From: a virus
DNA length: 24,897 nt
UHGV virus genome: UHGV-0147584
Strand: one strand, 5' to 3'
Shown piece after piece: positions 3,001 to 21,284 of this stretch. The notes under the pieces are model-generated. The model worked only from the letters and a program-made list of their open reading frames with translations, did not search any database and was not told where the DNA came from. The first letter of the stretch is position 1, and every line of letters starts with the position of its first letter. Made by a program: the position numbers and the translations under genes.

Positions 3001-3854
3001 TTAAAGCTGGCGTTCGGATCACATGCACCGTTTGAATGTAGATCCATCTGGCGTACTTGTTTACGTACTTTCAGGAATGAATCAACGTTGATGTTTTCAA
3101 TTGGTACGGATAAGCCATATTTTTCATTTGTTAGGTAGTGGAAAATCTGATCCACGCCGTTAGTGCTAGCCTCAATAGCATTGGTTTCAAGGTTACGAAT
3201 CTTTAACCCGCAAACGTCTACTGCTACCTGGCTATTTGGCTGGAGAATATCAACCCCAGCAGCAAGAGATTTGTCATCACGACGTAACACAATACACATG
3301 GTCGCAATGCCGTTACCCTTGAAAGCGTCGGTCCAGTCTGAGCCTAAATGACGTTTTGCCAGCGACAAAGCGGTGTTAGGATTCTTGCCCGTGCGGAACT
3401 CGACTTCTAATACTTTACGATATTCTTCTTTAATGTTGCCCTTATCGAGAATACCATCACGGATCGTCATGTTCTTACCAACAAGAACATTTTTGTTATC
3501 GATAAACAGTGCTTTGTAATGGTCGATTTCACCCTCGGCTACAGAGAAGATTTGCACTAGCTTATTGTTTTCTTGCTTAGAAACTGCTTTGTAAACACAG
3601 TTTGTGCCAGTGCGGGTAGTACCGAAAACGACTGGTATCACCGCTTTCGGATCGTTTGATGTTCCTAGTGTCACCGCATTATCTGGGCTTTGTACTTTAG
3701 GTGTTTTTGGTGCGCCTACAGTGGAAGCGATCAAGGTCATTGCACCAGCAGCCATACCGATAGCGACTGCGGTCATAACAGAAAATGTTGCAGCAGCAGC
3801 CATCCCAGCAGACGCACCAGCAATAACCGCGCCTACTAATATTTCAAATCCCAT
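78..3854 (-). CDS. central tail fibre / host specificity protein (lambda gpJ-like)
   Basis: 1258-aa ORF. The C-terminal ~150 aa carry motifs I recognise from the lambda gpJ receptor-binding end (DDHxFDRQIV, VDMPAG.G.V.LTF, VMV.KK). Start ATG overlaps the upstream stop (TAATG). Stop TAA. Confidence 0.85.
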   Translation of the reverse strand: MGFEILVGAVIAGASAGMAAAATFSVMTAVAIGMAAGAMTLIASTVGAPKTPKVQSPDNAVTLGTSNDPKAVIPVVFGTTRTGTNCVYKAVSKQENNKLVQIFSVAEGEIDHYKALFIDNKNVLVGKNMTIRDGILDKGNIKEEYRKVLEVEFRTGKNPNTALSLAKRHLGSDWTDAFKGNGIATMCIVLRRDDKSLAAGVDILQPNSQVAVDVCGLKIRNLETNAIEASTNGVDQIFHYLTNEKYGLSVPIENINVDSFLKVRKQVRQMDLHSNGACDPNASFKENLTNLMQTFGGVMFESFGRITLKLDAPDIVKHTFNEDNIMMGKVSLKTGGTNGYFNTINAMYQEPSIDYSEQMLRYPADAENDATVRADGRIIAKDVEYRFVKSKDQIDKLASIERNKSRITQVISFMTTDAFTAEVWDVISVTYDELKLNNSLWRITAIDRSIDSGIAGMMTITATEYNSQVYTDLNYAANPDNRPSGLPDSMTVQKPTNFRIKATGETIYGKNVTLTWDAPEDFNRYGFQIDYRVSGSPNWIKLGQTSQQIFSVNALAKDRSYDYRVCAFGIIARSDWVELVNQNPTVTYELPTPVIRIKNQGSTPGTFEGNDLIIEWENQQQLDVEINGETNKFSDLFEAYIIKVTNKAGKSIQYRTRDPESWTYTLDMNQFNGLSRQLTVEVSAKGYNNSESAPARLVAINPQHKPMKGFSARGGFNTAFVSWADDVEHDYAGSIIQYATDNTFSDARAVSTNSVSHTSFDLADGDYYIRGAHYDIFGMDDAVWSEPYFMQMKSTISWDDQDKEALEDLIGLQDRLDETIADAIAQAGANADAKIDAMHKQITTETGQTVQASANTLKSLIATSEQASSTKIDQVKAELKGDIKSEVSASATTLKQAIATSEAASASKIDQVRVEMDGKIAGVNQEADVKIDALKGTINSKYNLAVNADGRVAGIHMSATNDPAQPTRIIFNADKIAVAPQNGSEVCPFGIEGNKVYLDNAMIRNAAIGTAQINDAAITTAKIGNAAINSAKIQDGAITNAKIVNGAIDNAKIGNYIQSSNWNGSTGWHINKNGSATFMNATVKGNITADSGTLNNVTINSSCVIKGMLEATQVKGDFVKVIGRKFPHRDVNVDNGYAGYPQGTVTVRVEDDHKFDRQIVIPAVSFGGLRAREGSNNNTFYDTCRLIVRKNGSELYNRAYGGNTGLYSGVIDMPAGKGAVTLTFEVQSSAINNWTPSTWISDLTVMVTKKATTGIPVS
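690..865 (-). repeat. about six tandem 30-bp coding repeats inside the J-like gene
   Basis: Visible 30-nt periodicity (e.g. gtcctgaatcttcgcgctgttaattgcagc / atcattaatctgggctgtaccaattgcagc) encoding a 10-aa repeat NAAINSAKIQ / DGAITNAKIV / NGAIDNAKIG. Confidence 0.7.
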
Positions 3855-4319: not shown

Positions 4320-4973
4320 TTATTTCTTCGATGAATGCCACTTGCTTTCGCTATTCCACTTCCCGGCACGGGAGAAGAATAGATCGTTCTCGTTTCCAAC
4401 ATAGGATCGGTGGATACCATCGGAGGCATGACTACGGGCGTTTTTATCTAGAACTTCCCAGATACTATTAAGCTGAAATTCTGATTCGTTTTTACACTCA
4501 TCATCTTCATGTTCGATGTTAATCCCGATGGAATCGACTACCCCACGGAAAACAGGGTAAGTGGTTTCAACCTTGCCCGTGTTGGGATTCAGGAAAACCA
4601 TCTCGATTTTCACATCAGATTTATCGAATTGCTTGTTACGAATGAGAGTAATGTATTCTTCGCGAACGTTAGAAACAGTTACGTTGATCCCGTTGTTGTT
4701 GATCTCCTTCTCTTCGGTATTCGATGAGATTTGAAGAAAGTCACCCGTTGCGAGATATGTAAAACCGTTATAGTCCAAATCGAAATACCCATCTGTAAGC
4801 CGTAGAACGTCCCCTGACGCGGTAATCACTTCGATAATGTGAAACATCGATCCAGTGGAAAAAAGTTGCGGTAGAGTCAATCTAGACACATTCTGACCTG
4901 TCTGGTCGTTGTATACCTCGATGAAGTCCAGATTAGTGCATAGTTTGCTGAATGATTCCTGAATAGTTGCCAT
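4320..4973 (-). CDS. minor tail protein (lambda gpL position)
   Basis: 217-aa ORF between the M-like and K-like genes; start ATG overlaps the upstream stop (TAATG). Assignment is by position and size only. Confidence 0.5.
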   Translation of the reverse strand: MATIQESFSKLCTNLDFIEVYNDQTGQNVSRLTLPQLFSTGSMFHIIEVITASGDVLRLTDGYFDLDYNGFTYLATGDFLQISSNTEEKEINNNGINVTVSNVREEYITLIRNKQFDKSDVKIEMVFLNPNTGKVETTYPVFRGVVDSIGINIEHEDDECKNESEFQLNSIWEVLDKNARSHASDGIHRSYVGNENDLFFSRAGKWNSESKWHSSKK

Positions 4974-5533
4974 TATACATTCTCCACTAATTCAAATTTC
5001 ATCTTGCCAATCTGGGCGATCTTCCAATCGATATTTTCAGTTTTGAGAACAAATTCACCTTCTACGTTTTGATACTTGATCACCTCACCCGCCAGGACGT
5101 TCTGACGCAAGTTAGGGAAGAGTTTCATTTCACCACCTGATTTCACGTCTTCGGTGATCGTGTAGATTTTCTTGTGGTTCTCAAACTGGATGATAGTTCC
5201 CGCTTTCAGTGTTCCGGTGAAGTTGGAGAGTCTTACCTTACGCCCACCGCGAGCAGTACCAGCAGCAGCCGTAACCATCTGGCGTACATCACCTGTATAT
5301 TTTGAAAAGTAAGACAGTGGCACACTAAAAGGACGACCAAAAAGGTGACGTGCTACAAATTCTTTTACTTCGTTAATATCCTGAGCCATGAAATTAGCTG
5401 TAAATTCTGCTTCATAAAAATGAATGCCAGTAAAGCGACGCTGGAACTTACCAGAAATAGATTGCGCCTTAAAGAAAGGCTGTTTTGATTTAAGAGTAAA
5501 ATCTGTGATTTTAATATTCTTGGATTTGAACAT
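4973..5533 (-). CDS. minor tail / distal tail protein (gpM position)
   Basis: ORF frame is open to 5569 (GTG). The ATG at 5531-5533 is the only candidate with an SD-like GGGGG 8 nt upstream; alternative starts are ATG 5546-5548 or GTG 5567-5569. Stop TAA. Confidence 0.5.
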   Translation of the reverse strand: MFKSKNIKITDFTLKSKQPFFKAQSISGKFQRRFTGIHFYEAEFTANFMAQDINEVKEFVARHLFGRPFSVPLSYFSKYTGDVRQMVTAAAGTARGGRKVRLSNFTGTLKAGTIIQFENHKKIYTITEDVKSGGEMKLFPNLRQNVLAGEVIKYQNVEGEFVLKTENIDWKIAQIGKMKFELVENV

Positions 5534-8676: not shown

Positions 8677-9183
8677 TTAAGAGATTTTCAAAGTCTGCTT
8701 AGTGCCAGTCTTCTTAATGTTATTGAGGAAAGCTGCCGGAGGATTGCTTAACCAATAGTAATGAAAACCACTTTGCATACTGTTATAAGGAACAGTGACA
8801 GCAGCACCACCCAAATTAACGGTTATATTCCCCGCTCTACCGTTCTGGAGATATACAGCCATAGTAGGAGTACCACCATTGAATTGACCAACGATAACGC
8901 CAATCAGACGGCCTACGCCCACGTTTTCGGGGTTCTCCATAGTTCCTTTACTGCGCATATCAGTTACAGGATAGTTTGAAGCAGTTACACCCCAATTATT
9001 ACCCAATGACGTAGACCACGCAGCAGTAGCTACAACCGTATCCATACCACGACCAGCCATTGCCGACATATTACGCGGAGCCGGAACTTTTAAAGCTGTT
9101 AATGCTTCTTTCATCCATCGCTTACCCGTCACTGATACAGCCGATGACCCGATCCAGCCGGGAACTTTAACGACATTTGCCAT
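8677..9183 (-). CDS. hypothetical virion-associated protein (Gly/Ala/Thr-rich)
   Basis: 168-aa ORF, ATG 9181-9183 preceded by GGAG; sits between a terminator and the G chaperone gene. No family recognised. Confidence 0.45.
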   Translation of the reverse strand: MANVVKVPGWIGSSAVSVTGKRWMKEALTALKVPAPRNMSAMAGRGMDTVVATAAWSTSLGNNWGVTASNYPVTDMRSKGTMENPENVGVGRLIGVIVGQFNGGTPTMAVYLQNGRAGNITVNLGGAAVTVPYNSMQSGFHYYWLSNPPAAFLNNIKKTGTKQTLKIS

Positions 9184-9231: not shown

Positions 9232-9357
9232 TTAATCTTTAGCCTTGCGGCTTCGTTTAGCTGTGGCTTTCGCCGTAACTTCTTCTACTTCTGGAATCAC
9301 TACCGCTTCATGTTCCGGCTGTGGTTCAGGTTCCGGTAAAGGAAGTTCTTCGTTAGT
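9232..9357 (-). other. in-frame 41-codon extension behind the UGA stop of the 158-aa gene (candidate readthrough segment)
   Basis: Hand translation from 9357 down, in frame with the upstream ORF: TNEELPLPEPEPQPEHEAVVIPEVEEVTAKATAKRSRKAKD, then TAA at 9232-9234. Confidence 0.5.
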
Positions 9358-9834
9358 TCATCCGGCAGTGTTGAAGATTTCCTGTTTCAGCGGAGCACCA
9401 TCAACAGCAAAGGTAAATTCTTTAGTTACCACTTCTTCATCGCCACCGTTCATAGCAACTTTAGAAATAAAGCCGTTGAAAGCGGTGCGAATACCAGTCT
9501 GTTTTGCTGCGTCAACATAGTATTCAATTTTAATCTGAATACGGGTTCCATCTTCGGCAGCCTTAATAAGACGCTCATGCACGGTATCCCCGGGAATATA
9601 ATTAACGGTCAGAGTCAGATCAGGAACGTTCAGTTTACCTACCAGCTTGCGGTTATACTGAGAAGAGAAGGATTTAACTTCTACAGTACCGCGCTCGATA
9701 CCAGTTTCAGGGAAACCAGCACACTCTTTAATTTCTTCATAGCTTTCATGATCGAGAGCGGTGTTAGTGGTATCGGCGTGATAGAACATACTTACCAGAC
9801 CACCAGTAAAAATATCTTTGAATTGTTGAGACAT
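9358..9834 (-). CDS. putative tail tube-fold protein (candidate major tail protein)
   Basis: 158-aa ORF with SD AAGGGG. A segment (GKLNVPDLTLTVNYIPGD...LIKAAEDGT...IEY) is paralogous to the 277-aa protein at 13552-14385. Ends in TGA followed by an in-frame extension and terminator. Confidence 0.5.
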   Translation of the reverse strand: MSQQFKDIFTGGLVSMFYHADTTNTALDHESYEEIKECAGFPETGIERGTVEVKSFSSQYNRKLVGKLNVPDLTLTVNYIPGDTVHERLIKAAEDGTRIQIKIEYYVDAAKQTGIRTAFNGFISKVAMNGGDEEVVTKEFTFAVDGAPLKQEIFNTAG

Positions 9835-9890: not shown

Positions 9891-12800
9891 TTATTTAGTT
9901 GCTTTCAGTTCGGCAATCTCTTTATGTAATGCTTCGATCTGCGCTTTATATTTGGCGTCCATTTCCTGCATAGCTTTGATGATTAAAGCATTGACAGCAG
10001 AGTTAGAAATAGTCTTGATTGCTTCTGGATGTTCTGGATCTTCGGTAGATTGAATACCTACTGCTTCCGGCAATACTTTTTCCAGATCCTGAGCAATAAT
10101 ACCTACTTCGCGTTTAATTACCGTGTCATCAGAAAGAGATTTAACTTTATCGTAGGTGTATACTTTCAGGGAGTTTACTTTCTCTAATGCACCGTCCTGT
10201 AATTCTTCCTTGTTAATTTTCAGACGAGAGTCAGAGCGAATGTAAACATCGTTAAAGCTACCGTTACGACCTGCCGTCATGTCACCGGATGCGTTAAAGT
10301 CAAAGACGGCATCATGAACATGGAGACGAACAAGAGCGTTACCGATAGTACCGCTAGGAACGTGTACACCCATTGCGGCGATATGATATTTACCTTGATG
10401 GGTTGCTTTCCAGATGTTATGAGCGGAATCGGTTGATTGCTGGCAGTCGACCTGAATACCGGAAGCACGATCACGCCAGCTAGCCCAACTACCACCAGCA
10501 ACGCTACCACGAATAAGACCATTACCGCCACCGGATACAGTGCCCGTTTCAAGGTGAATCATCTTACCGCCGAATTTCCAGACTTCGGCTTGTTTCTCAC
10601 CGCGCATACGCATAACACCAGCATCATCGCAGTACAACAGACCCAACTCTAAGCCGTTTGGATCTCTAAACCATAAATGCTTGTTACCAGTGCGCTTAAA
10701 CTCAATATCAGCACCATTCAGGGTGATATTGCCTCCAGTGTGGATTGCTTTAGGCTTAACAGTACCGTTAATAGCAAACTCGATTAATTCAGTACCAGGA
10801 CCGCCAGCACGTTGGGTATACCAGTGCCAACCGCTTTCATCAGCACATTCAAACACTTGTTTACGAGCATCAGCGCCCCATGCACGAATATTAAACGTAG
10901 AAGTTGCAGTACCTTTACCCCAGCGAATTTGTCCAGCAGCTTCTAAATCACCGAAGAATTTAGTTTTAATCGCACCAGTTGCTAAAGTACGTTCAGTGGT
11001 GAAGTGTGCACCTTTGCTATCGTCAAGCTGTAAGATATTATCACGAGCGTTATTGCTATCGCCCCAATGGTTAAACCGGAAGTAGTCGCGAGAATTTAAT
11101 CGACCAGCATCAAAGGTTAACATTCCTTTACCGACGTAAATATCACCAGCAAATCGAGCAGCACGGCTATCTCGTTCGAGAACTAATGCACCCTCGTTAC
11201 CATCACCACCTAAAGTAACTTTACCAGTCGTCAAATCGTAAATGAATGGTCGGTTGCCGTTCCAGCCACCAAATTTATCATTTTCGGCAGTTGAAAGAAG
11301 ATAAACTTTACCACCATCATTACGCCAGAATGCACCGTAGTTACCGTAAATCATACGGAATGCATCACTGTTAGCAGCTACATATTGTCCGTTTGAGTAA
11401 ACAATTTTTGTTTTACCAGTGGATAATGAAACTTGACCGTTCTCATCCAGTCTTACAGAGTTATTACCTTCCGTTAATTCATTTACTAACTGTACAGTGT
11501 TAGTAGTACCATCACCATAACCTAGATAACCCTGACGACGATTAGCACCAGAACGATAATCAAAGAATTCGATATAGTTACTTTGCCCGTCGCGGCGTTC
11601 CATTCTAATAGCGTTATTACCCTTAACAAAAAGGCGGTTTACAGTAACACCATTAAAATCAATTTTTAATTGATCCGCTGTATCAGTAACACCAGTAGCT
11701 AAACGATAGACACTACCTTCAACAACTTCATGCCAAATTGTTTCGGCTGATTTGCTACGGAATTTACGAAGATATTTTTTATTTGTATCAGTTGAGTTAT
11801 TCAGACTGATAATATCATATGTTCCTTGACCGTTATTATCGAACATCAACGTTCCGGCTTTGTTTTCGGTGTTGAACATCGTAATAACACGAGCATCAGT
11901 AACACCAACAGAAGGTTTAACGAGAGTTAATTCAGGAACATCATGTACTGTTAACGAAACATCACTAGTTTTACCATATTCGACAATAACGTTATCGGTA
12001 TAACGACCGTAGTTTACGTAAATGTCGTAGTTATCACCGGAAGTATTAACCGCAAATACTTGATGGACATTCAAAGAATTTCGACGATAAGCAGCAATAC
12101 TAACGCCTTTCGGGTTATTGTTACCGGAACGGATAACAATTTCTACAAAATCAACCTGATCATAGGAGTTAACGTTATAGCCGTTACCACCGAAGATACG
12201 AAGCATTACCATTCGACCATTCTGTGGGATCGTGGCGGTTGCAATCTTGAAGTATCCACGAGAAGCATCACCAGACGGAACAGACATTTTCACGTTCTTG
12301 ATGAACATCTGGTCAACTGCGGCCTTGCTATACACACCCAATTCATCAGGAGTCGGCTTATCACCTTCATGGTACATGCGATAGCTGAATCTCTTGTTAC
12401 CGTCCTTATCAAAGCCATAGGTTTTAACCTGAGATGAGCTAGACCCATAATGGAACTCAAAGCCGCGACCGTGTGCTTTACCGCCAGAATGAGGAATGTT
12501 AAGGATTAAGTTACCCCAGCCTTCGGCATTGTTCGGACGAAACGCACCAAAATAATCAAGGTTACGAGCACCAGCATCATCAAAATAGTTAGCGGTCTTG
12601 CTTAACAGATAGCCATGATGATAAGTGTTGGTATTCTTCTTGATGTAAAGAGCATCGTTGCTACCTTCAATACCATCAATTCGACGGTTAGCGGCTGCAA
12701 TCGCTGCATCTGCATCGGTCTTGTTTTTGTCTACCTTCGCGTTAATGGCGGTATGATTGCTATTAACAGTGTTGGTTAAGTTGGTGATCTTCGTATCAGC

Positions 12801-13478
12801 GTCTTTCTTGTTATTCGCTACCGTAGTTTCAATGGCTGATTTGTTAGCCGCAACGGTACTCGTTAAGCTGGAGATCTTAGAATCAGCATCAGACTTGTTA
12901 GCTGTAACGGTTTTGGTCATATTGCTAACATTGGTGTTGGTGGCATCAACACGGCTATTGATCGCGGTGTTATTGTCATTAACCGTAGTGGTTAAAGCTG
13001 AGATTTTATTGTCCGCGTCTCGTTTGTTATTCGCTACGGTAGTTTCAATAGCTGATTTGTTTGCCGCAACAGTGTTAGTTAAAGTGGTATGTTTGCTGTC
13101 AGCGTCGGTTTTATTTGCCGTAACTGTCTGGGTTAAGTTACTAACATTGGTGTTAGTAGCATCAATGCGCTTATTGGTTGCTGTATCTTTCGTGTTAATA
13201 GTGTTATTCAGTTCAGATTTAGCGGTAGCCAGAGCGTTAGCAGCTTCGGTTTTATTTGCCGCAATAACACGATCCGTGTTGGTTTTGTTTGTGTCTACTT
13301 TAGTGTTAAGTTCAGCGTGTTTTTCTGGGGAAACGCTGATTTGAACTACTGCGTTATTTTTGTCTTTCGTGTAAATTACGTGGTCGGCAAGGTTAATAGC
13401 TACCTCACCCTGTGCCAGTTGTTCCGGCGTTGGCTTTTTACCAGCCGTCTGTGTGCGTTTAAATTGGATTGATTGCAT
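9891..13478 (-). CDS. side / L-shaped tail fibre with C-terminal intramolecular chaperone (peptidase S74-like) domain
   Basis: 1195-aa ORF. Conserved fibre N-terminus (MQSIQFKRTQTAGKKPTPEQLAQGEVAINLADHVIYTKD), tandem shaft repeats, and a C-terminal ~114 aa beginning RSDSRLK that resembles the autocleaving chaperone of phage T5 pb1 / K1F endosialidase. Stop TAA. Confidence 0.8.
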   Translation of the reverse strand: MQSIQFKRTQTAGKKPTPEQLAQGEVAINLADHVIYTKDKNNAVVQISVSPEKHAELNTKVDTNKTNTDRVIAANKTEAANALATAKSELNNTINTKDTATNKRIDATNTNVSNLTQTVTANKTDADSKHTTLTNTVAANKSAIETTVANNKRDADNKISALTTTVNDNNTAINSRVDATNTNVSNMTKTVTANKSDADSKISSLTSTVAANKSAIETTVANNKKDADTKITNLTNTVNSNHTAINAKVDKNKTDADAAIAAANRRIDGIEGSNDALYIKKNTNTYHHGYLLSKTANYFDDAGARNLDYFGAFRPNNAEGWGNLILNIPHSGGKAHGRGFEFHYGSSSSQVKTYGFDKDGNKRFSYRMYHEGDKPTPDELGVYSKAAVDQMFIKNVKMSVPSGDASRGYFKIATATIPQNGRMVMLRIFGGNGYNVNSYDQVDFVEIVIRSGNNNPKGVSIAAYRRNSLNVHQVFAVNTSGDNYDIYVNYGRYTDNVIVEYGKTSDVSLTVHDVPELTLVKPSVGVTDARVITMFNTENKAGTLMFDNNGQGTYDIISLNNSTDTNKKYLRKFRSKSAETIWHEVVEGSVYRLATGVTDTADQLKIDFNGVTVNRLFVKGNNAIRMERRDGQSNYIEFFDYRSGANRRQGYLGYGDGTTNTVQLVNELTEGNNSVRLDENGQVSLSTGKTKIVYSNGQYVAANSDAFRMIYGNYGAFWRNDGGKVYLLSTAENDKFGGWNGNRPFIYDLTTGKVTLGGDGNEGALVLERDSRAARFAGDIYVGKGMLTFDAGRLNSRDYFRFNHWGDSNNARDNILQLDDSKGAHFTTERTLATGAIKTKFFGDLEAAGQIRWGKGTATSTFNIRAWGADARKQVFECADESGWHWYTQRAGGPGTELIEFAINGTVKPKAIHTGGNITLNGADIEFKRTGNKHLWFRDPNGLELGLLYCDDAGVMRMRGEKQAEVWKFGGKMIHLETGTVSGGGNGLIRGSVAGGSWASWRDRASGIQVDCQQSTDSAHNIWKATHQGKYHIAAMGVHVPSGTIGNALVRLHVHDAVFDFNASGDMTAGRNGSFNDVYIRSDSRLKINKEELQDGALEKVNSLKVYTYDKVKSLSDDTVIKREVGIIAQDLEKVLPEAVGIQSTEDPEHPEAIKTISNSAVNALIIKAMQEMDAKYKAQIEALHKEIAELKATK
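12735..13170 (-). repeat. two tandem ~216-bp (72-aa) repeats in the fibre shaft
   Basis: Protein repeat RIDATNTNVSNLTQTVTANKTDADSKHTTLTNTVAANKSAIETTVANNKRDADNKISALTTTV versus RVDATNTNVSNMTKTVTANKSDADSKISSLTSTVAANKSAIETTVANNKKDADTKITNLTNTV; DNA copies are near-identical over long stretches. Confidence 0.8.
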
Positions 13479-13551: not shown

Positions 13552-14385
13552 TCAGTATTCCCCGAAGTCGATTCGGTCTGTCTTAGCAACCGCATTAATT
13601 TCGGCTGGCGTAGGCTTCTCATTTGTTGTATAGACTTTAATCCATTCAGATTTTCCGTTGTCCTGAATATTTCGTACCCGCAAACGTGGAGCACCGGAAG
13701 TATTACAAGTTAATTGCCATGCGCCATGCTCATTAGCTTGAAGATGAATTAACGATGTATCAGCACCATAAGGATTAGTGCTAGCCGTTCCTTTGTAGGT
13801 TACGAAGCGGTTTCCTGTCAGAGATTCACTATCAATAGGACCACTGAAAGGATTTACACCAGCGCCCAGACCAAAATCACCCTGACGTAAGATACGGCCT
13901 TCGGTAGCAATACCCCTTGCAAGAATCCCGCCATCTGGTTCTAGTTTGAATTCCATAGTTACAGCTTTGTTATCACCACCACGAGTTTTATGGCTAGTGA
14001 CATAAGCATCATAGATGACATAGTAACCAGTGTTAGCAGCACTATAGCCAGAGTTAACGACATAGAACATTCTAAAGCGTAAAGGTGTTTTATCCTCTAC
14101 GGCTTTCATCAACATTGCTTGGTGTTCATCGTCAAGAACACGGTTTACTGTGAGCGTAGTCGGTTCAAGTTTGCGATAGCCAGCCAGCTTACCAGTCGCA
14201 TCATGATCATACTCTTCGTAAGTCTCGATCTCGGTTGATTCTGTTAGCGTAGGAAAGGCTGCGATGTTCTCCATACCACTAAAGCTAGGATCGAAAAAGT
14301 CGACCTGATTGTCTAGCTGGTTAGAGATCGACACTTCAACATGCGATCCCGTAAAAATATCTAAGTTATCATGCGTAATATTCAT
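13552..14385 (-). CDS. tube-fold tail protein (candidate major tail protein, lambda gpV position)
   Basis: 277-aa ORF with SD AAGGGGTAAT. About 34% identity over an ungapped 41-residue stretch with the 158-aa protein (TLTVN..D....L.KA.ED.T......Y). Ends TGA, then 3 sense codons and TAA. Confidence 0.5.
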   Translation of the reverse strand: MNITHDNLDIFTGSHVEVSISNQLDNQVDFFDPSFSGMENIAAFPTLTESTEIETYEEYDHDATGKLAGYRKLEPTTLTVNRVLDDEHQAMLMKAVEDKTPLRFRMFYVVNSGYSAANTGYYVIYDAYVTSHKTRGGDNKAVTMEFKLEPDGGILARGIATEGRILRQGDFGLGAGVNPFSGPIDSESLTGNRFVTYKGTASTNPYGADTSLIHLQANEHGAWQLTCNTSGAPRLRVRNIQDNGKSEWIKVYTTNEKPTPAEINAVAKTDRIDFGEY

Positions 14386-14394
14386 TATTACCCC

Positions 14395-14796
14395 TTAAAA
14401 ACGCGCTAGATAAGAAAATTTAAGGCTAAGTGTCCCAACGATACCCCCATCACTAGAATCATCGTCATAATCGGTATTAGAAGCGACTGGAGTTATATCT
14501 GAAATGGAGAAGCCCAAATCTTTAAAACGTGGGTTATCTGGCTGAATCTGGATTATCTGGCAAATACCCTCATGAATTTTGGTTTCATGAATCTGAGAAT
14601 ATAATTGCATTTCGATAACGCATTCAGCTTGCATTGCATTACCACCACGGACCCTAGTGTAAGTCTCATTCATTCCGGTAATCCAACACACCACGTCATC
14701 GCTAAAACCAGTTTGAGTTTGTTCTACGTTTAAAGCCAGACCTAGATCTTGTTCGATAATATCCTGTAAAGCACGTTTAATCTTAAGACGTGGCAT
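14395..14796 (-). CDS. neck / tail-completion protein (hypothetical)
   Basis: ORF frame extends to 14823, but the ATG at 14794-14796 lies 4 nt after the upstream stop (coupled start). Position corresponds to lambda Z/U. Confidence 0.45.
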   Translation of the reverse strand: MPRLKIKRALQDIIEQDLGLALNVEQTQTGFSDDVVCWITGMNETYTRVRGGNAMQAECVIEMQLYSQIHETKIHEGICQIIQIQPDNPRFKDLGFSISDITPVASNTDYDDDSSDGGIVGTLSLKFSYLARF

Positions 14797-14800
14797 ATTA

Positions 14801-15091
14801 TTAACGGTAGCGAGCATGAGCACCCCCTGCTAAAGTGATAAAGCAATCACTGGTATTGTCACCATTGCGCTTAATGTATTGAACTTTGAAACGCTGATTT
14901 TCTACAATGACAATATCACCTTGCTTTAAATCTCCCTCACGACAGAATAAGAATTCTGATTCTGTCCATACCCCTTGCTCGTCGGTAGTGGTAATTTCAT
15001 GGTAAGCACGAATTGATTTACCACCTTCCACGACAAAAACAGGAGCACTTCGGAACATTCTTGATAATTGTGATTCGGTTAATTTGAACAT
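14801..15091 (-). CDS. head-tail joining / head completion protein (hypothetical)
   Basis: 96-aa ORF immediately after the capsid gene terminator, SD AAGGGGG; size and position match the FII-like head completion slot. Confidence 0.45.
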   Translation of the reverse strand: MFKLTESQLSRMFRSAPVFVVEGGKSIRAYHEITTTDEQGVWTESEFLFCREGDLKQGDIVIVENQRFKVQYIKRNGDNTSDCFITLAGGAHARYR

Positions 15092-15122
15092 AGTTACCCC
15101 CTTTTATGGAGTATTTACATAC

Positions 15123-15150
15123 AAAAAAGCCCCACCGTTAGGCAGGGCTA
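15123..15150 (-). terminator. intrinsic terminator after the capsid gene and its extension
   Basis: Minus-strand RNA: AGCCCUGCCUAACGGUGGGGC hairpin followed by UUUUUUGUAUGU. Confidence 0.7.
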
Positions 15151-15154
15151 ATTA

Positions 15155-15241
15155 TTATTTTGCTTTCGGTGGACGTCCCACCTTTTTAGCTGTGGCTTTC
15201 GCCGTAACTACCGGAATTTCTTCCGGCAATTCTTCGTTATT
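15155..15241 (-). other. in-frame 28-codon extension behind the UGA stop of the capsid gene (candidate readthrough segment)
   Basis: Hand translation from 15241 down, same frame as the capsid ORF: NNEELPEEIPVVTAKATAKKVGRPPKAK, then TAA at 15155-15157. Confidence 0.5.
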
Positions 15242-17242
15242 TCATTCAGCGGAGATGTGAAGAACTTTCAGAGCTTCCGGCTGTGCTACAACGTAGTCCA
15301 AATCTACAAAGATACGAGGCACTACCGCACCACGATCCCTATATGTAGTTAGATCCATGTCGAGTTCCAGACCTCCCCACTCACCGATAGTAATACCGGA
15401 GAAGTCACCCAGAACGATGTGGTCTGCCGGGATAACGCCAGAAGTAACTACTTCGTAACCAGCCAGTTTGCCGTTTTCGATGATATAACCGGAAACGCCG
15501 TTATCTTTCAGGGTAGATTCCAGTTCAGCAGCAGTTGCACCGCTCATCGCAAACTTGATCGCCTGAGCAGGAACGCCAGCGTCGGTCAGTGCTGCAATTT
15601 CTTTCAGGAAGTCTTTGTAAGAGAAAGCAGCTTTCTTGGTAACGCGGCTAGCGTCTACCAGTTGCTTAACCAGACCAGCCGGACCACGGTCGTTAGCTTT
15701 ATCAGACAGAATCAGTTGTTCCAGTTTGATGCGAACAGCTTTGTTAATGTGATCAGTGATCAGGGAAGCGATGCCGGGTACGGTTTTCAGCGACTGACGG
15801 CTGATCGGGTTGCCACCAGCAAAAGTTTTCGGAGACAGTTTCACGTTCGCAAATTCAGCTTTGCTTTCCGGTGCAGCACCGTTTTCATCAACGAAGCCGA
15901 AAGCGTCAACGCTGGATTTAGTCATTTTTGGAATAGCGGTCGGGGAGTTCAAGCCACTGTAAACAGTCACACCCAGACGACCCAGAACAGATTCCGGCAT
16001 CAGCATTTCGATGTAGGATTCAGTCATCAGTTTTTCGTCAGTGATAGCGGTCAGGTCGGCTTTGGTGTTACCAGCAGAAGCAGCACGCATAGCAGCAGCC
16101 GGAACGAATACAGAGCCACCGCGAGCAGCACGACCACGCTGCATTGCAGCACCAGCAGCCATAGCGGAATATTCAGCTTCGTTAGCACCCAGAGCAGCAC
16201 CATCTACCAGAGAGCGAATTACGTTGTTCAGGTCAAAAGTTTTTTCCATTTTAGAGTCCTTAATTTGTTCGTTATTACGTTGAGCATTGACGAGATTATT
16301 TAGTGCCTTAGTGCGGAATGCTTCCGGCGTCATGTCTTTAATTGCCAATGCGCGTTTCAATTCTTCGTCGTCAATATTTAGTTCCCGCGCGATTGCTCGG
16401 ATTTCTTCTTCGTCTTCTTCGGAACGTTCAGCCACTTCTTCGGTTTTTTCTTCTTCAACCGGAGCGGCTTCACGTTCTTCTTTTACTTCTTCTTCCCGAA
16501 CAGTTGAACTATCATCATCAACACTTTCAGGATGTTTAGCGTCTTTTCCGTCTTCGAGATTTTCATCTTCTTTATTCTCTTCAACTTGGCGCTCTTGAGT
16601 TTCTTCAACTTTCGGTTCTTTATTTTCTTCTACCGGAGTTTCTTCAACCTGAGCGGGTTCTTGTTCTTCTTTGATTTCTTCGATTTGTTCTTTAGTCATA
16701 TCGCGTTTAGCCCCCAAATTAACTGTGATAGTATTTAGAGAGCGATTTAAACCGACCGAATCATCGGCAGGGACCGTGACCCACGAAATTTCGTGAGGAA
16801 TCCATTTAGAAACAATGAGTTGCGATTTAGCGTAGTCGATGTGATATTCTTTAATGTCATAACCGACAGAAATTTTTTCCATCGTACCTTCAATGACTTT
16901 ATTACGAATATCATTAGCCAAAGTCCCATGCTTAGAGAATTTAACCAGAGCACGGCCTACGTTATCCGCATCGATTCGAGCGTTACAAACGACACCAATG
17001 TGATTATCGAAATTATGATTGAACAGCAACGGAGCGTTATTATTCAGACGAGACAGATCAACCGCTTCCGGTGTATGTACCAGAATTTCATCTAATACCA
17101 CCATTTCTTGATTTTGCTCATCCCAAAATTGGCGCTGATAAGGCTGTGTACTTGAGAAAGCAATTTCAAACTCGTATTGATCGTTATGCCCTTCGTTAAT
17201 AACTCCACCGTAACCGTTAAGATCGCGGCGAAATTTAAGCAT
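15242..17242 (-). CDS. prohead protease - acidic scaffold - major capsid protein (HK97 fold) encoded as one ORF
   Basis: 666 aa. N-terminal ~180 aa carry HK97-family prohead protease signatures (LLFNHNFDNHIG; KISVGY...HEISWVTVPADDSVG). Residues ~180-330 are an extremely acidic low-complexity linker. The C-terminal ~330 aa look like an HK97-fold capsid protein. SD AAGGTGA. Stop TGA. Confidence 0.75.
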   Translation of the reverse strand: MLKFRRDLNGYGGVINEGHNDQYEFEIAFSSTQPYQRQFWDEQNQEMVVLDEILVHTPEAVDLSRLNNNAPLLFNHNFDNHIGVVCNARIDADNVGRALVKFSKHGTLANDIRNKVIEGTMEKISVGYDIKEYHIDYAKSQLIVSKWIPHEISWVTVPADDSVGLNRSLNTITVNLGAKRDMTKEQIEEIKEEQEPAQVEETPVEENKEPKVEETQERQVEENKEDENLEDGKDAKHPESVDDDSSTVREEEVKEEREAAPVEEEKTEEVAERSEEDEEEIRAIARELNIDDEELKRALAIKDMTPEAFRTKALNNLVNAQRNNEQIKDSKMEKTFDLNNVIRSLVDGAALGANEAEYSAMAAGAAMQRGRAARGGSVFVPAAAMRAASAGNTKADLTAITDEKLMTESYIEMLMPESVLGRLGVTVYSGLNSPTAIPKMTKSSVDAFGFVDENGAAPESKAEFANVKLSPKTFAGGNPISRQSLKTVPGIASLITDHINKAVRIKLEQLILSDKANDRGPAGLVKQLVDASRVTKKAAFSYKDFLKEIAALTDAGVPAQAIKFAMSGATAAELESTLKDNGVSGYIIENGKLAGYEVVTSGVIPADHIVLGDFSGITIGEWGGLELDMDLTTYRDRGAVVPRIFVDLDYVVAQPEALKVLHISAE

Positions 17243-17287: not shown

Positions 17288-18799
17288 TTAGGGATCGGTT
17301 TGAGAAGGGTTATCCTTGCTCTCACCATCAACGATAATATTTAGTGCGCTCTTTTCGGCTTGAATCTCTGAGAATACTTTTTCAGGATCATCACCACGTT
17401 CAAGAATAACAGCAGTACGTGATTTAAGACCATTTTGAATTAAAGCAATCTCGGCGTTTACGTCTTTAATAGGATCGACGGATTCAAAACGCGGACGAAT
17501 AATAGTAGTGTTATCGATAATATGAGGAATTGCAGTAATACGAATCGGAACAATACCACGCGCGGAATAATGGCGTAGATATGCTTCGAAAATTGGCAAT
17601 ACCACTGTTTCAATTAATTTGTTTTGCAGTGCTTTAATGCGGTTACGCTGAGTTAATTCACCAAAACGTGCGGCTGAGTAGTTGATCTGTGAACAATCTC
17701 CTGTTAAGCCCTGTTTGAACACGCCTAAGCCCATTGATACGCTAGTGAACATCGCATCATTGAAGCTGTTAAAGTCATCGCCATTTTGCGATGATTGAAT
17801 GCTCTTGATTGTTGCCCCTTCCGGCAATTCCTGAATAGTACCCGGTGCAAAGTCCTGTACTACTTCCGGCGCTTGATATTGTTCATCCTCTTCACCAGTA
17901 TCAAAATCGTCACCAGAATCTTTAGGACGTTCGATAAAGCCCATAGAACTAGCCGCAATACGTTTCTGGACGATCGCGGTTTCGCGGAACGCTTCTTGAT
18001 GCGCAATATCCTTAATCACTGGCAGGAAGTCAGTCACACCACGTAAACTTTCCGCGCACAGTGGCTGGTAGTAGTGGCACACCTGAGAAGCATCTACGCG
18101 ATAATTTTCGCCAGTGTAGGTCTGAGTCAGTAGATTGATTTTTCTAAACCAGTATGCTACAGGGCGCATTGTGTCTACGTCATACTCAATCCCCTGATAG
18201 ATCGCACGTTCTTTGCTTATTTCACGACTAAGCGACCAGTCGCACCTATCAGCAGACAGAATAGAAACTTGTAACTCATTGTTCTCTTTGGTTAAAACGA
18301 TGAAGCATTCTCCACCCTGAACACGTTCAGATTCTGCCATTGCCAGCATTTCACGGAAGTTAAAGCGACCGTTGCGAGAGAAGCGTTTAGCACTCTGCGC
18401 CCACTTCCAGAAAGCATTCTCGATCTGCTTATTCAGTGCGGTGTCAAGTTTGCCATTTGATTTAACGATTGATGGTTTCGGATCAAGCCCCGTACCAACA
18501 ACTTGGTCAACGATATACTGCTTGTATCGCTTACCTACAGCATTGTTTATAGCCAGAGTACGACCCTGATCATAAAGGCGCTTACCGTTCGATTTGAGAG
18601 CCTTATTGAAGGTTCCTGTAATGGTGTCTTGTTGAAGCTGTCCATCAATGCGATCACCGACTAAGCCCAAAGAACGCTTAGACAAATCTTTCTGGAATTT
18701 TTCTACTTGTTTGTCGATAAAGATTTTTTGTTGTTGCTGGCGGTGATTAGTTTTAACTGGAGTTTCTACCGCCTTTTTGCGTCGAAAAAGATTAAACAT
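17288..18799 (-). CDS. portal protein (lambda gpB-like position)
   Basis: 503-aa ORF between the gpW-position gene and the capsid gene; SD AAGGGGTAAATC; size and position typical of a portal. Stop TAA. Confidence 0.8.
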   Translation of the reverse strand: MFNLFRRKKAVETPVKTNHRQQQQKIFIDKQVEKFQKDLSKRSLGLVGDRIDGQLQQDTITGTFNKALKSNGKRLYDQGRTLAINNAVGKRYKQYIVDQVVGTGLDPKPSIVKSNGKLDTALNKQIENAFWKWAQSAKRFSRNGRFNFREMLAMAESERVQGGECFIVLTKENNELQVSILSADRCDWSLSREISKERAIYQGIEYDVDTMRPVAYWFRKINLLTQTYTGENYRVDASQVCHYYQPLCAESLRGVTDFLPVIKDIAHQEAFRETAIVQKRIAASSMGFIERPKDSGDDFDTGEEDEQYQAPEVVQDFAPGTIQELPEGATIKSIQSSQNGDDFNSFNDAMFTSVSMGLGVFKQGLTGDCSQINYSAARFGELTQRNRIKALQNKLIETVVLPIFEAYLRHYSARGIVPIRITAIPHIIDNTTIIRPRFESVDPIKDVNAEIALIQNGLKSRTAVILERGDDPEKVFSEIQAEKSALNIIVDGESKDNPSQTDP

Positions 18800-18809
18800 G
18801 ATTTACCCC

Positions 18810-19307
18810 TTATCGCGTAAGACGTAATTTGATATTTTTAATAGGGCTAATTCCCTGTTTACGTCGTTCGGCTTGAATTACTTTAGATAACTGACGTTCA
18901 TAATCGACTTTTAGAGTCTGGAGAACACCCAATGACTCATAGGCGAAAGTATTCCCTTTCACGGTCATTGCAGATAATGCGGCTTCGTCCCCAGATAAAC
19001 GGGCGAAAATAACTTGCTCGATTAAGGCGATAGTTTCCCGCAGATACTGTTTTTTGGATTGTTTGGCAAAGACTGGTAAAACAGTTAATTCCTGCATTGA
19101 TACCAGTTCTTCATCAAAAGTTATTACGATGGTATATTTACCCTCGGCAAAATCTAAGGTTTTAATCTCGTGATTAGCCGGAGAATCATCAACCTGATAA
19201 ATGATACCTTTATTATTATTTCCTACCTGAATTGTTACACCCTCTTCATTCGCCAGCGTGATTTTTTCGCCTTTACGAATTACTAAGGGAATTAGTTCTA
19301 AACTCAT
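18810..19307 (-). CDS. hypothetical protein at the lambda gpW position (possible head-tail joining function)
   Basis: 165-aa ORF between terminase and portal, SD AAGGGGTAATT. Only weak resemblance of its C-terminus to gpW-like proteins. Confidence 0.4.
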   Translation of the reverse strand: MSLELIPLVIRKGEKITLANEEGVTIQVGNNNKGIIYQVDDSPANHEIKTLDFAEGKYTIVITFDEELVSMQELTVLPVFAKQSKKQYLRETIALIEQVIFARLSGDEAALSAMTVKGNTFAYESLGVLQTLKVDYERQLSKVIQAERRKQGISPIKNIKLRLTR

Positions 19308-19379: not shown

Positions 19380-21284
19380 TTAGAACGATGTTACCCAGCT
19401 ACGGCCTCTATTTGGGCGTCTGGCGATGTTTTTACGTTGTGGTCGTGTGATTGGCTTATTTTCTTCGATTTGCTCGTCAGATTGCGATTTAGGAGCTTTT
19501 ACGGGTTCTTCGACAACACGGTTTAAGCTGTCTTTCATTGCGATGAGTTTATCCCATGACATTTTTGAAAGGACGTAGCGAGAAGCCGCTGTAGCATACA
19601 CGGCGCAGTCGAGCGCCTCGTTCCTAACGCCTGGGTTCTTTACCCATCTCACGCCAGTAGTAGTACGCTTGACAGATTCACTTAAAAGCTGATCGAGATA
19701 ATCATCAGGAACGGTGTCTGATATTTCTAAGCCAATATGAGGATTATCTTTCAGGTTCCTAGCCAACATTTCACGAAATGCAGTTTTACCCACATTAACA
19801 CCCAACATAAGCAATTCATGACCACCTGTGCGGGTAGGTTTAACCGGAATGATCGGAGCGTTACCAGCAGAACTACCTTTGATAGCGTGTAAGTTCTTCC
19901 ACTTGCCGCAAATACGGTATCCAGCTTGAGTGAATCGACCGTTCGATGTATCAAGGAAGCTGGCGAGCATAGGAACACGATCACCCGATACAGTAGTAAA
20001 TCTGGTTTTATGGAAGTTGATTAATCTATCCCATACAGGGGATTCATATCGTTCACAGTTATGATCGTAAAAGCTGCGGTGATCCAGAATATAAATCTTA
20101 TCCTTTGCCACGCCCATGATTGTAGTTTCTGCGCGATCTAATTGCTGGTCAGTACCCGCACACAAGAAAATCACGTCATCAGGGATATTCTCGATAGAAA
20201 CATCTGTTTTGAGTTGTTCCAGTTCATTTGCTTCTACTGCCGTGTCCTGATCGTCGTATACCTTGCCTAACACGGTGTTATAAAATGATTGTAAATCAAA
20301 GGATTGCCACGCATGACTAAAATCAACCACACAAGCGCGGATCGTGCTGAAAGGTGAATACAGACGGCTGATCCAGAATCCTGCTACTTCACTTTCACGG
20401 GTTGCTCTCCACTCGCCTTGTGCTACTGCCCTGATTCGTTCCCCTTCGGTCCATGCGTTCTTACAGTGGGGGCAAATATAACGAGCGGTATCAGGATCGG
20501 GTAAGTTCTTACCATCGATGTTACGCCATTCAAACTGTACGTTTTCCCACTCGATCACCTGGTGTCTACCGCAATGAGGACACGGAACAAAAAACATACG
20601 CATATCACTTGATAACCATTGCTGGTTAATGCTTCCGAGCTTACTGGTCGGGGTACTGGATACGACTAATCGGCCTTCATCGCCAAAGGTAGTTAAACGG
20701 TTAGCAGCCAGTGCCACCGGATCACCTTCTTCTGAGGCTGTAGCAGCATCGATTTCGTCAAGCAATCCAACCTTTGCGGTCTTACCGCGTAGGGTTGATG
20801 GACTAGTAAGCGATACCATATAAAGGAAGTGGTTTGATTTGAGCTGGAGCTGATTGTTGTTATTAACAGAATTGCGATCATTCTTGTCTGTAACCACGTC
20901 TTTTAATGCATCACATGCTTCGATAGACGGTCGGATCTTACCCGCGAGATATTGAGACATTTCTTTAGCGGTTGATTGTCCGATAATCATATTGCATGGA
21001 TCGTTAGCCATCTGGTTAAACAGGATGCCGTTCAAGATGGTAGTCTTTCCGATCTGCGCACTGGTCATCAGAACATACTTTTTCTTGTTCTCAAGGAAAG
21101 GAGCATCAATCATACCTTTCTGGAATGACAGCAATTTAACTTTATCCCCAGCTTGAGGACCATCTACCAGCACCATATTCGCTTCGCACCATTCAGAAGG
21201 AAGGAGCTTAGGCGGTGGCGTAATATATTTGGCTGCATTTTTGAGAATCTTTTTTAATTTGGCCTTATTTGAAATCAGTTTCAT
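19380..21284 (-). CDS. terminase large subunit, lambda gpA family
   Basis: 634-aa ORF. Walker A-like TSAQIGKTT, paired CPHCG...CPHC motifs, [11 protein letters not shown] and [11 protein letters not shown] segments closely resembling lambda gpA as recalled. SD GAGGGT. Stop TAA. Confidence 0.9.

Follow-up and report, generated by a model that had tools for sequence, protein, structure and literature searches.

A fused protease, scaffold-like and capsid gene with a candidate leaky UGA stop in an Escherichia coli prophage

The capsid protein gp5 of phage HK97 is made with a helical, scaffold-like N-terminal extension, the delta domain, which is removed at maturation, and phage lambda is known for the nested genes C and Nu3. 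Salmonella phage Gifsy-2 reportedly carries a tripartite protease-scaffold-capsid gene whose product is processed to the mature capsid protein; its protease is said to be ClpP/lambda-gpC-like and not of the S78 type, and a gpD-like decoration protein is said to be used. At the other end of structural genes, the single-stranded RNA phage Qβ adds a folded extension of 196 residues to its coat protein, T7 uses a -1 frameshift, and other phages add Ig-like domains to capsid and tail proteins by frameshifting. Here we describe a gene of the virus genome UHGV-0147584, an E. coli prophage, of which a stretch of 24,897 nucleotides was analysed (the window). The gene occupies positions 15242..17242 of the minus strand, encodes protease, scaffold-like and capsid parts in one frame, and is followed by a candidate readthrough tail.

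The gene is a single intact frame with three folds and conserved catalytic His and Ser residues, and it is widely distributed. We consider it likely that it represents one genuine head-assembly polyprotein gene, processed as proposed below and closed by a leaky UGA-A stop. It is the leaky-stop cassette, and not the fusion, that merits experiments.

One frame for protease, scaffold-like region and capsid

In a program-made list of open reading frames (ORFs), the gene runs without interruption from ATG to TGA over 666 codons, with a Shine-Dalgarno sequence (AAGGTG) 5 nt upstream. Its parts are as follows.

15242..17242, minus strand: fused gene, 666 codons plus TGA stop, 73.3 kDa precursor, full-length match to PHROG 617
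16748..17182, minus strand: prohead serine protease domain of the HK97 gp4 / Peptidase S78 type, residues 21-165
16433..16738, minus strand: acidic linker, residues 169-270, predicted to be disordered, strongly acidic
16073..16432, minus strand: helical scaffold-like (delta-domain-like) region, residues 271-390, six predicted helices
16025..16072, minus strand: junction and predicted maturation cleavage region, residues 391-406, best guess after Lys394
15245..16024, minus strand: HK97-fold major capsid domain, residues 407-666

These segments follow an AlphaFold2 model built on 61 diverse homologues, in which a confident beta-rich segment (residues 21-165) is succeeded by a disordered stretch (169-270; predicted local distance difference test, pLDDT, below 50), six confident helices (275-389), a low-confidence junction (391-406) and a confident alpha/beta domain that extends to the C-terminus. 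The initial annotation had proposed an HK97-type protease at one end and an HK97-fold capsid domain at the other, and structure prediction recovers both, together with the segments between them.

For the protease, Pfam Peptidase_S78 (PF04586) matches residues 40-162 above threshold (39.1 bits against a cut-off of 21), the herpesvirus assemblin / T4 gp21 fold is confirmed by the structure model and fold search, and hhalign against HK97 gp4 (86% probability, E 5e-6) places H76 on H65 and S125 on S114, which we take to be the catalytic His and Ser of gp4. His76, Ser125 and Glu151 are invariant in the 61 homologues, down to 25% identity, and the ratio of nonsynonymous to synonymous polymorphism (pN/pS) of the domain is 0.17. 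A sequence search of the PDB with the protease profile gave chance matches only and no solved protease, so that the relationship is visible only by fold or by hhalign to HK97 gp4. This last result and the modest Pfam score (39 bits) could be taken to mean that the domain is a dead relic kept as scaffold mass, the capsid being matured by some other protease or by none. Invariant residues aligned with those of gp4, a low pN/pS and a confidently predicted assemblin fold argue against such a relic, and Pfam and PHROG scans found no other protease gene in the head module; we regard it as very improbable. The N-terminal domain is best read as an S78 serine protease of assemblin fold that would be catalytically active.

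The capsid domain is recognized by Pfam Phage_capsid (PF05065) at residues 408-662 (93.9 bits against a cut-off of 24.2), by phmmer, which matches it to the capsid of roseophage R4C (PDB 8GTA, E 3e-24), and by Foldseek, where the same entry is the best match (E 1e-18, target-normalised template-modelling score 0.73) and the capsids of phiXacJX1, D3, HK97, RcGTA and SaPI1 are further ones.

The acidic segment between the two domains, previously put at about 150 residues and taken for the scaffold, exists and is highly acidic: residues 181-295 contain 42% Asp plus Glu and have a net charge of -33, a length of some 115 residues. The scaffold part itself more likely resides in the helical region of about 120 residues (271-390), which the initial annotation had not described, than in the disordered linker; by analogy with the HK97 delta domain, a scaffold function is suggested for these helices. 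A conserved motif, RG..(I/V)P..A(L/M), lies just ahead of the junction.

A mosaic relative in E. coli ETEC1717 (locus L008, NZ_CP122876) has a protease domain about 45% identical to that of the window. From residue ~185 onward it is about 95% identical, and the protein is still fused. The recombination breakpoint falls at the N-terminal edge of the acidic linker, which marks a domain boundary and indicates that the fusion was kept through exchange of the protease module. ETEC1717 also carries a different portal gene, and between it and the fused capsid gene there is a 340-residue gene (positions 852-1874 of that locus) with three CapR homology domains (PF21817).

The integrity of the frame was assessed in 53 related loci gathered from E. 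coli genomes, IMG/VR and metagenomes. The ORF is intact in 48 of them, at 662-670 codons; the remaining five are mostly cut by contig ends or have another start, and one (L044) is frameshifted. In addition, more than 100 near-identical proteins of 665-669 residues are found in independent public assemblies. A sequencing or assembly artefact hiding a stop or a frameshift between separate genes, the condition under which the initial annotation would have failed, could find support in L044 and in RefSeq genomes that annotate separate 'prohead protease' and 'capsid' pieces. These split annotations, however, coincide with insertion sequences (IS1, IS903B or IS3), and the fused length recurs in hundreds of distant homologues. 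Since the intact ORF recurs in independent assemblies and loci, a hidden stop or sequencing error is excluded, the artefact is already refuted with virtually nothing left in its favour, and the single uninterrupted frame of 666 residues is confirmed. The insertions lie inside the fused capsid gene in some strains (NZ_CP195866, NZ_OW848980, NZ_CP124819), implying that many prophage copies are decaying.

An internal in-frame start that yields a protease-less scaffold-capsid product or the capsid alone, as Nu3 lies within C in lambda, was also considered. Met332 has a weak AGGA 7 nt upstream, yet no more than 34 of 48 alleles keep it; Met182, which sits at the domain border, lacks a Shine-Dalgarno sequence and is missing from ETEC1717, and no internal start is conserved across the family. 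Examination of the internal starts at domain borders gave no convincing site for a protease-less product, which makes this alternative improbable.

The architecture itself is not new. PHROG 617 matches the protein end to end (E 2.6e-91), PHROG 4523 ('major head and protease protein') matches as well, and GenBank homologues are labelled 'major capsid protein and peptidase U35' or 'major capsid protein and protease'. Among 1.84 billion cluster representatives, 423 matched at E<=1e-30, and of the top 150 nearly all have 565-760 residues and cover both ends of the query. Because this architecture is widespread and already named in databases, the fusion is an ordinary one: as judged from these sequences, protease-scaffold-capsid fusion is a common arrangement and of low interest alone, and the novelty implied by the earlier contrast with the separate or nested genes of lambda was overstated. 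Our literature searches found no specific account of the fusion or of mapped N-termini.

Regarding maturation, the homologue in R4C is a 629-codon ORF, and the chain in the virion structure has 268 residues (362-629). The start of this chain aligns with window residue ~395 (NTK/ADLTAIT), inside the low-confidence junction. The computed mass of residues 395-666 is 28.9 kDa, as compared with 73.3 kDa for the precursor. By analogy, the length of the R4C chain fits a proteolytic removal of protease and scaffold, and a cleavage position near residue 395 may be proposed from the alignment. Several points weigh against this interpretation. The R4C paper does not discuss cleavage, and the 268-residue chain starts exactly at the Pfam capsid domain start, so that its first residue may reflect the modelled part and not a mapped N-terminus; moreover, we infer protease activity, cleavage site and readthrough product alike. 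The earlier proposal that the N-terminal part is removed from the capsid subunit thus gains indirect support from R4C, whereas its 'cis' mode is not established: trans cleavage within the prohead once it has assembled, the HK97 mode, would agree with the data just as well.

In analogy with HK97 and with the tripartite capsid gene of Gifsy-2, 73 kDa precursors would build a prohead on the lambda-type portal, their protease and scaffold parts turned towards the interior. Assembly would bring the proteases together and activate them; they would then cleave the precursor near residue 395, and the N-terminal part of 44 kDa would probably be degraded by them, leaving a capsid protein of about 29 kDa that would expand during DNA packaging.

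The stretch behind the capsid stop and its copy behind the tail tube gene

The region that follows the capsid gene, and a paralogous one after the tail tube gene, contain the following elements.

15242..15244, minus strand: TGA stop followed by A, UGA-AAU in the window and UGA-ACU in 33/53 relatives
15158..15241, minus strand: post-stop in-frame stretch and candidate readthrough tail, 28 codons, NNEELPEEIPVVTAKATAKKVGRPPKAK
15152..15157, minus strand: tandem TAA TAA that ends the extension, in 52/52 loci reaching that point
15122..15149, minus strand: intrinsic terminator hairpin and T-run (terminator scan), located after the extension and not after the TGA
9235..9360, minus strand: paralogous cassette after the tail tube coding sequence 9358..9834, with TGA-ACU, a 41-codon in-frame tail TNEELPLPEPEPQPEHEAVVIPEVEEVTAKATAKRSRKAKD, TAA and the same terminator

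The capsid protein ends in VLHISAE and its stop is followed in frame by NNEELPEEIPVVTAK; the tail tube protein ends in FNTAG, followed after the stop by TNEELPLPEPEPQPEHEAVVIPEVEEVTAK. In all 53 capsid loci the stop is TGA followed by A and frame 0 stays open behind it, giving 25 distinct peptide alleles of 28, 42, 43, 44 or 45 codons; the other two frames have 1-7 stops across the same loci. TGAACT and the frame are likewise kept in 25/25 related tube loci, whose tails fall into at least 13 alleles of 36, 39 or 41 codons. The two tails share an identical VTAKATAK core, and the cassettes share nucleotide homology that includes the TGA and the terminator (fold energy -16 kcal/mol, z-score -3.1, at the capsid gene). 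The cassette was found only in genomes carrying the prophage. TGA ends 3 of the 20 window genes, the tail tube gene among them, and TAA the other 17.

Inside the capsid extension, indels are multiples of three only. Indels of 1 and 2 nt are found in these loci immediately 3' of the extension, within the loop of the terminator and the spacer that leads to the following gene; the tube tails have indels of 6 and 15 nt only. With both sites pooled, 7/7 extension indels are multiples of three vs 0/6 in adjacent non-coding DNA (Fisher p=0.0006), and none of the 25 + 13 alleles contains an in-frame stop.

The stop context is permissive. The Qβ coat gene ends in UGA-ACU, a leaky stop that is read through at 3-5% in E. 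coli (PMC13517186); UGAA is a weak binder of release factor 2 (RF2) (PMC5373646), and how often UGA is read through in E. coli is determined by Trp-tRNA and RF2 competing for it (PMC10570021). UGA-A is present in 53/53 capsid and 25/25 tube loci, and the full UGA-ACU in 33 and 25 of them, respectively. From these comparisons, we think it likely that the tails are translated by UGA readthrough, by a few percent of ribosomes. Decoding would most likely proceed via tRNA-Trp, as in Qβ, and on the capsid it would add a tail of 28 residues, acidic and then basic, to give a minor species of about 32 kDa. As the same cassette stands behind the tail tube gene, the same peptide would be displayed at low density on both of the major surfaces of the virion. 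The additional capsid product that had been attributed to a readthrough tail thus has strong comparative evidence on its side, the product itself being deduced.

Some observations speak against translated tails. The pN/pS of the extension (0.28-0.89) is no lower than that of shifted-frame controls (0.52, 1.10), which implies that the peptide sequence is weakly constrained and that substitutions give coding no support. In two loci, Escherichia phage DCP80 (L011) and L064, the tail lies out of frame, which means that it can be lost or is dispensable. The counts given above also overstate independence, because they come from related alleles and from two cassettes with a common ancestry that extends to the TGA; the in-frame position of the two cassettes is partly inherited and was not found twice independently.

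These same data are what an untranslated stretch would call upon, either as a tail relic cut off by a nonsense mutation or as a structured module of 3' untranslated region and terminator that was duplicated to stand after two highly expressed genes, acting for instance in mRNA stability. A shared homology that covers TGA and terminator fits the duplication of a 3' module, sense-codon tails in sister lineages make a nonsense mutation a plausible origin, pN/pS is uninformative, and both alleles hold strong hairpins. In the window allele, an 11-bp stem with a GAAA loop starts 11 nt after the UGA; in the long allele (L005 and others), an 8-bp G/C stem lies 23 nt after it, and both regions fold at z about -5 vs shuffles. 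These hairpins differ between alleles in sequence, position and spacing, unlike one conserved RNA element, and they could stimulate readthrough, protect the mRNA 3' end or play another role at the RNA level. A neutral relic or an RNA element should, however, gain stops and indels that are not multiples of three, neither of which is seen, and the stop is never TAA or TAG although 17/20 genes use TAA. We accordingly regard an untranslated stretch as unlikely, if still a sizeable minority possibility. An independent small gene with its own initiation is highly improbable. It could point to DCP80, where the capsid stop is succeeded, in a different frame, by an ORF of 28 codons that has its own ATG and ends similarly, and to phiHAP-1, where an unannotated ORF with a ribosome-binding site follows the capsid gene; but frame 0 of either cassette contains no ATG and no start with Shine-Dalgarno sequence that is common to all alleles, and the conserved unit begins at the TGA itself.

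As to the origin of the tail, capsid proteins of a sister lineage, 59-65% identical to the homologue in DCP80, have at their end a compositionally similar tail written in sense codons (…PAEVKAALKASA, …PAEAPAEAKAGK), directly before TAA and terminator, and several distant homologues end likewise. This suggests that an ancestral constitutive tail was later placed behind a leaky stop in the window's lineage. In DCP80 (L011 ~4939-5025) and L064, a tail-like peptide (…APVKKSKSASG, …SPAKVKKPRALKVK) precedes the terminator in the -1 frame. These two out-of-frame tails, at which no classical slippery site was seen, may be relics, mini-ORFs of their own or products of frameshifting. The phiHAP-1 ORF (L012, EU399241), of ~73 codons and with a good ribosome-binding site, begins MATAKPSSRVAVVSLGGHWQYGEF… and lies after the terminator-like hairpin of the capsid gene, between the capsid end at 3312 and ORF6 at 3596.

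Other ways of decoding the stretch, and other sources for it, were considered and set aside. For selenocysteine insertion there was no Rfam match, the hairpins vary, and the 11-bp GAAA-loop stem lacks the features of a selenocysteine insertion sequence (SECIS); no Rfam family explains the cassette. For a phage suppressor tRNA, the only ARAGORN call (14540-14630, plus strand, 91 nt, tRNA-Gln) is antisense to the gene 14395..14823, has no Rfam support and is probably a false positive. A generic repeat or miniature inverted-repeat transposable element (MITE) was rejected as the source, the cassette being confined to prophage-carrying genomes. Frameshifting at the capsid stop was ruled out because both alternative frames close within a few codons.

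To our knowledge, programmed stop-codon readthrough has no precedent in the structural genes of a tailed double-stranded DNA (dsDNA) phage; functional readthrough is, as far as we know, rare in bacteria, and we know of tailed phages that extend structural proteins by frameshifting, not by readthrough. A search of the literature for capsid readthrough in tailed phages found nothing relevant, in a limited library whose silence is no proof of novelty. That the recoding cassette (UGA-A, a tail of 28-45 codons, TAA and terminator) is both true and previously undescribed appears to us slightly more probable than the opposite. If so, it would constitute a new and very compact virion decoration, with a shared peptide placed sparsely on head and tail, and the level of the tail would depend on the RF2 and tRNA-Trp physiology of the host.

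Genome context and neighbouring genes

Upstream of the fused gene, the head module comprises a gpA-type large terminase gene (TerL, 19380..21284), a gpW-like gene (18810..19307) and a lambda-family portal gene (17288..18799), directly after which the fused gene stands. Small head-tail genes, tail genes and a tail fibre gene lie 3' of it. Prophage DNA was detected in 55 of 5,426 complete E. coli genomes (~1%), at 87-96% identity and chromosomal in every case; in strain 14EC007 the prophage adjoins ghrA and ycdX. A protein search of species-representative genomes gave no match, the lineage being absent there.

The tail fibre gene (9891-13478, minus strand) encodes 1195 residues and has ~80% DNA identity to gene 37 of RB49-like T-even phages, whose product type is the distal long tail fibre; a gp38-like adhesin gene (8677-9183, minus strand) lies near it. 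Other tail genes (DUF2163, DUF6950, tail tip) look RcGTA/R4C-like, and it is onto this siphovirus-type tail that a myovirus fibre module has been grafted. Two tube-like genes on the minus strand flank the long fibre gene, an unusual order: the product of 13552-14385 has 277 residues, with an N-terminal half that matches PHROG 158 'major tail protein', and that of 9358-9834 is a 158-residue 'phage tail tube protein'.

The DCP80 record (PQ671644) is classed as a 141-kb member of the Straboviridae (T4-like). Its segment between 1.7 and 10 kb (L011 1-7929) nevertheless encodes a terminase of the lambda type, a portal and the fused capsid protein, all annotated as hypothetical, and the record may be a chimeric assembly or an unusual mosaic.

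Comparison with known systems

The same domain order in one ORF of 570-700 residues is found in R4C gp6 (8GTA), phiHAP-1 ORF5, VP882, FoX/Murka and PPpW-3, phages of Dinoroseobacter, Halomonas, Vibrio, Xanthomonas and Pseudomonas, respectively. These fused homologues, which belong to PHROG 617 and 4523, have the same invariant His, Ser and Glu, and their gene stands directly after the portal gene; R4C is the best match to the capsid domain in both sequence and structure. Homologues outside the E. coli/Salmonella clade are only 25-43% identical, and those inspected end in TAA or in a non-leaky arrangement and lack the TGA-A cassette. With the window gene, this large known class of polyproteins gains a member from E. 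coli, where about 1% of complete genomes carry it.

With HK97 it shares the protease family, including aligned catalytic His and Ser, and the capsid fold. In HK97, however, protease gp4 and capsid gp5 are encoded by separate genes and the protease is packaged sub-stoichiometrically, whereas here a protease is carried by every subunit through an acidic linker of ~100 residues that HK97 does not have. In this regard, the prophage could serve in E. coli as a convenient genetic model of how a capsid accommodates protease at a 1:1 ratio to capsid protein and on a long acidic tether. The concept is identical to that of Gifsy-2 (Effantin et al. 2010, Virology 402:355), also an enterobacterial prophage with lambda-like packaging genes; Pfam and PHROG scans of the window revealed no decoration gene. 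In herpesviruses, which have an assemblin-scaffold precursor (UL26/UL80 type), the capsid protein comes from a gene of its own, whereas the fusion described here runs through the capsid protein.

At the 3' end, the closest parallels are Qβ A1 and T7 10A-10B, in which recoding at the end of the coat gene produces a minor, C-terminally extended capsid species. The Qβ signal, which also operates in an E. coli host, is the same hexanucleotide that occurs at 33/53 capsid and 25/25 tube loci. Different from both, the candidate tail of the prophage, seen in the genes only, is short (28-45 residues), of low complexity and common to capsid and tube genes, and it belongs to a dsDNA prophage. If the tails are indeed translated, the cassette would be functionally equivalent, in minimal form, to the Ig-like domains added by frameshifting in other phages.

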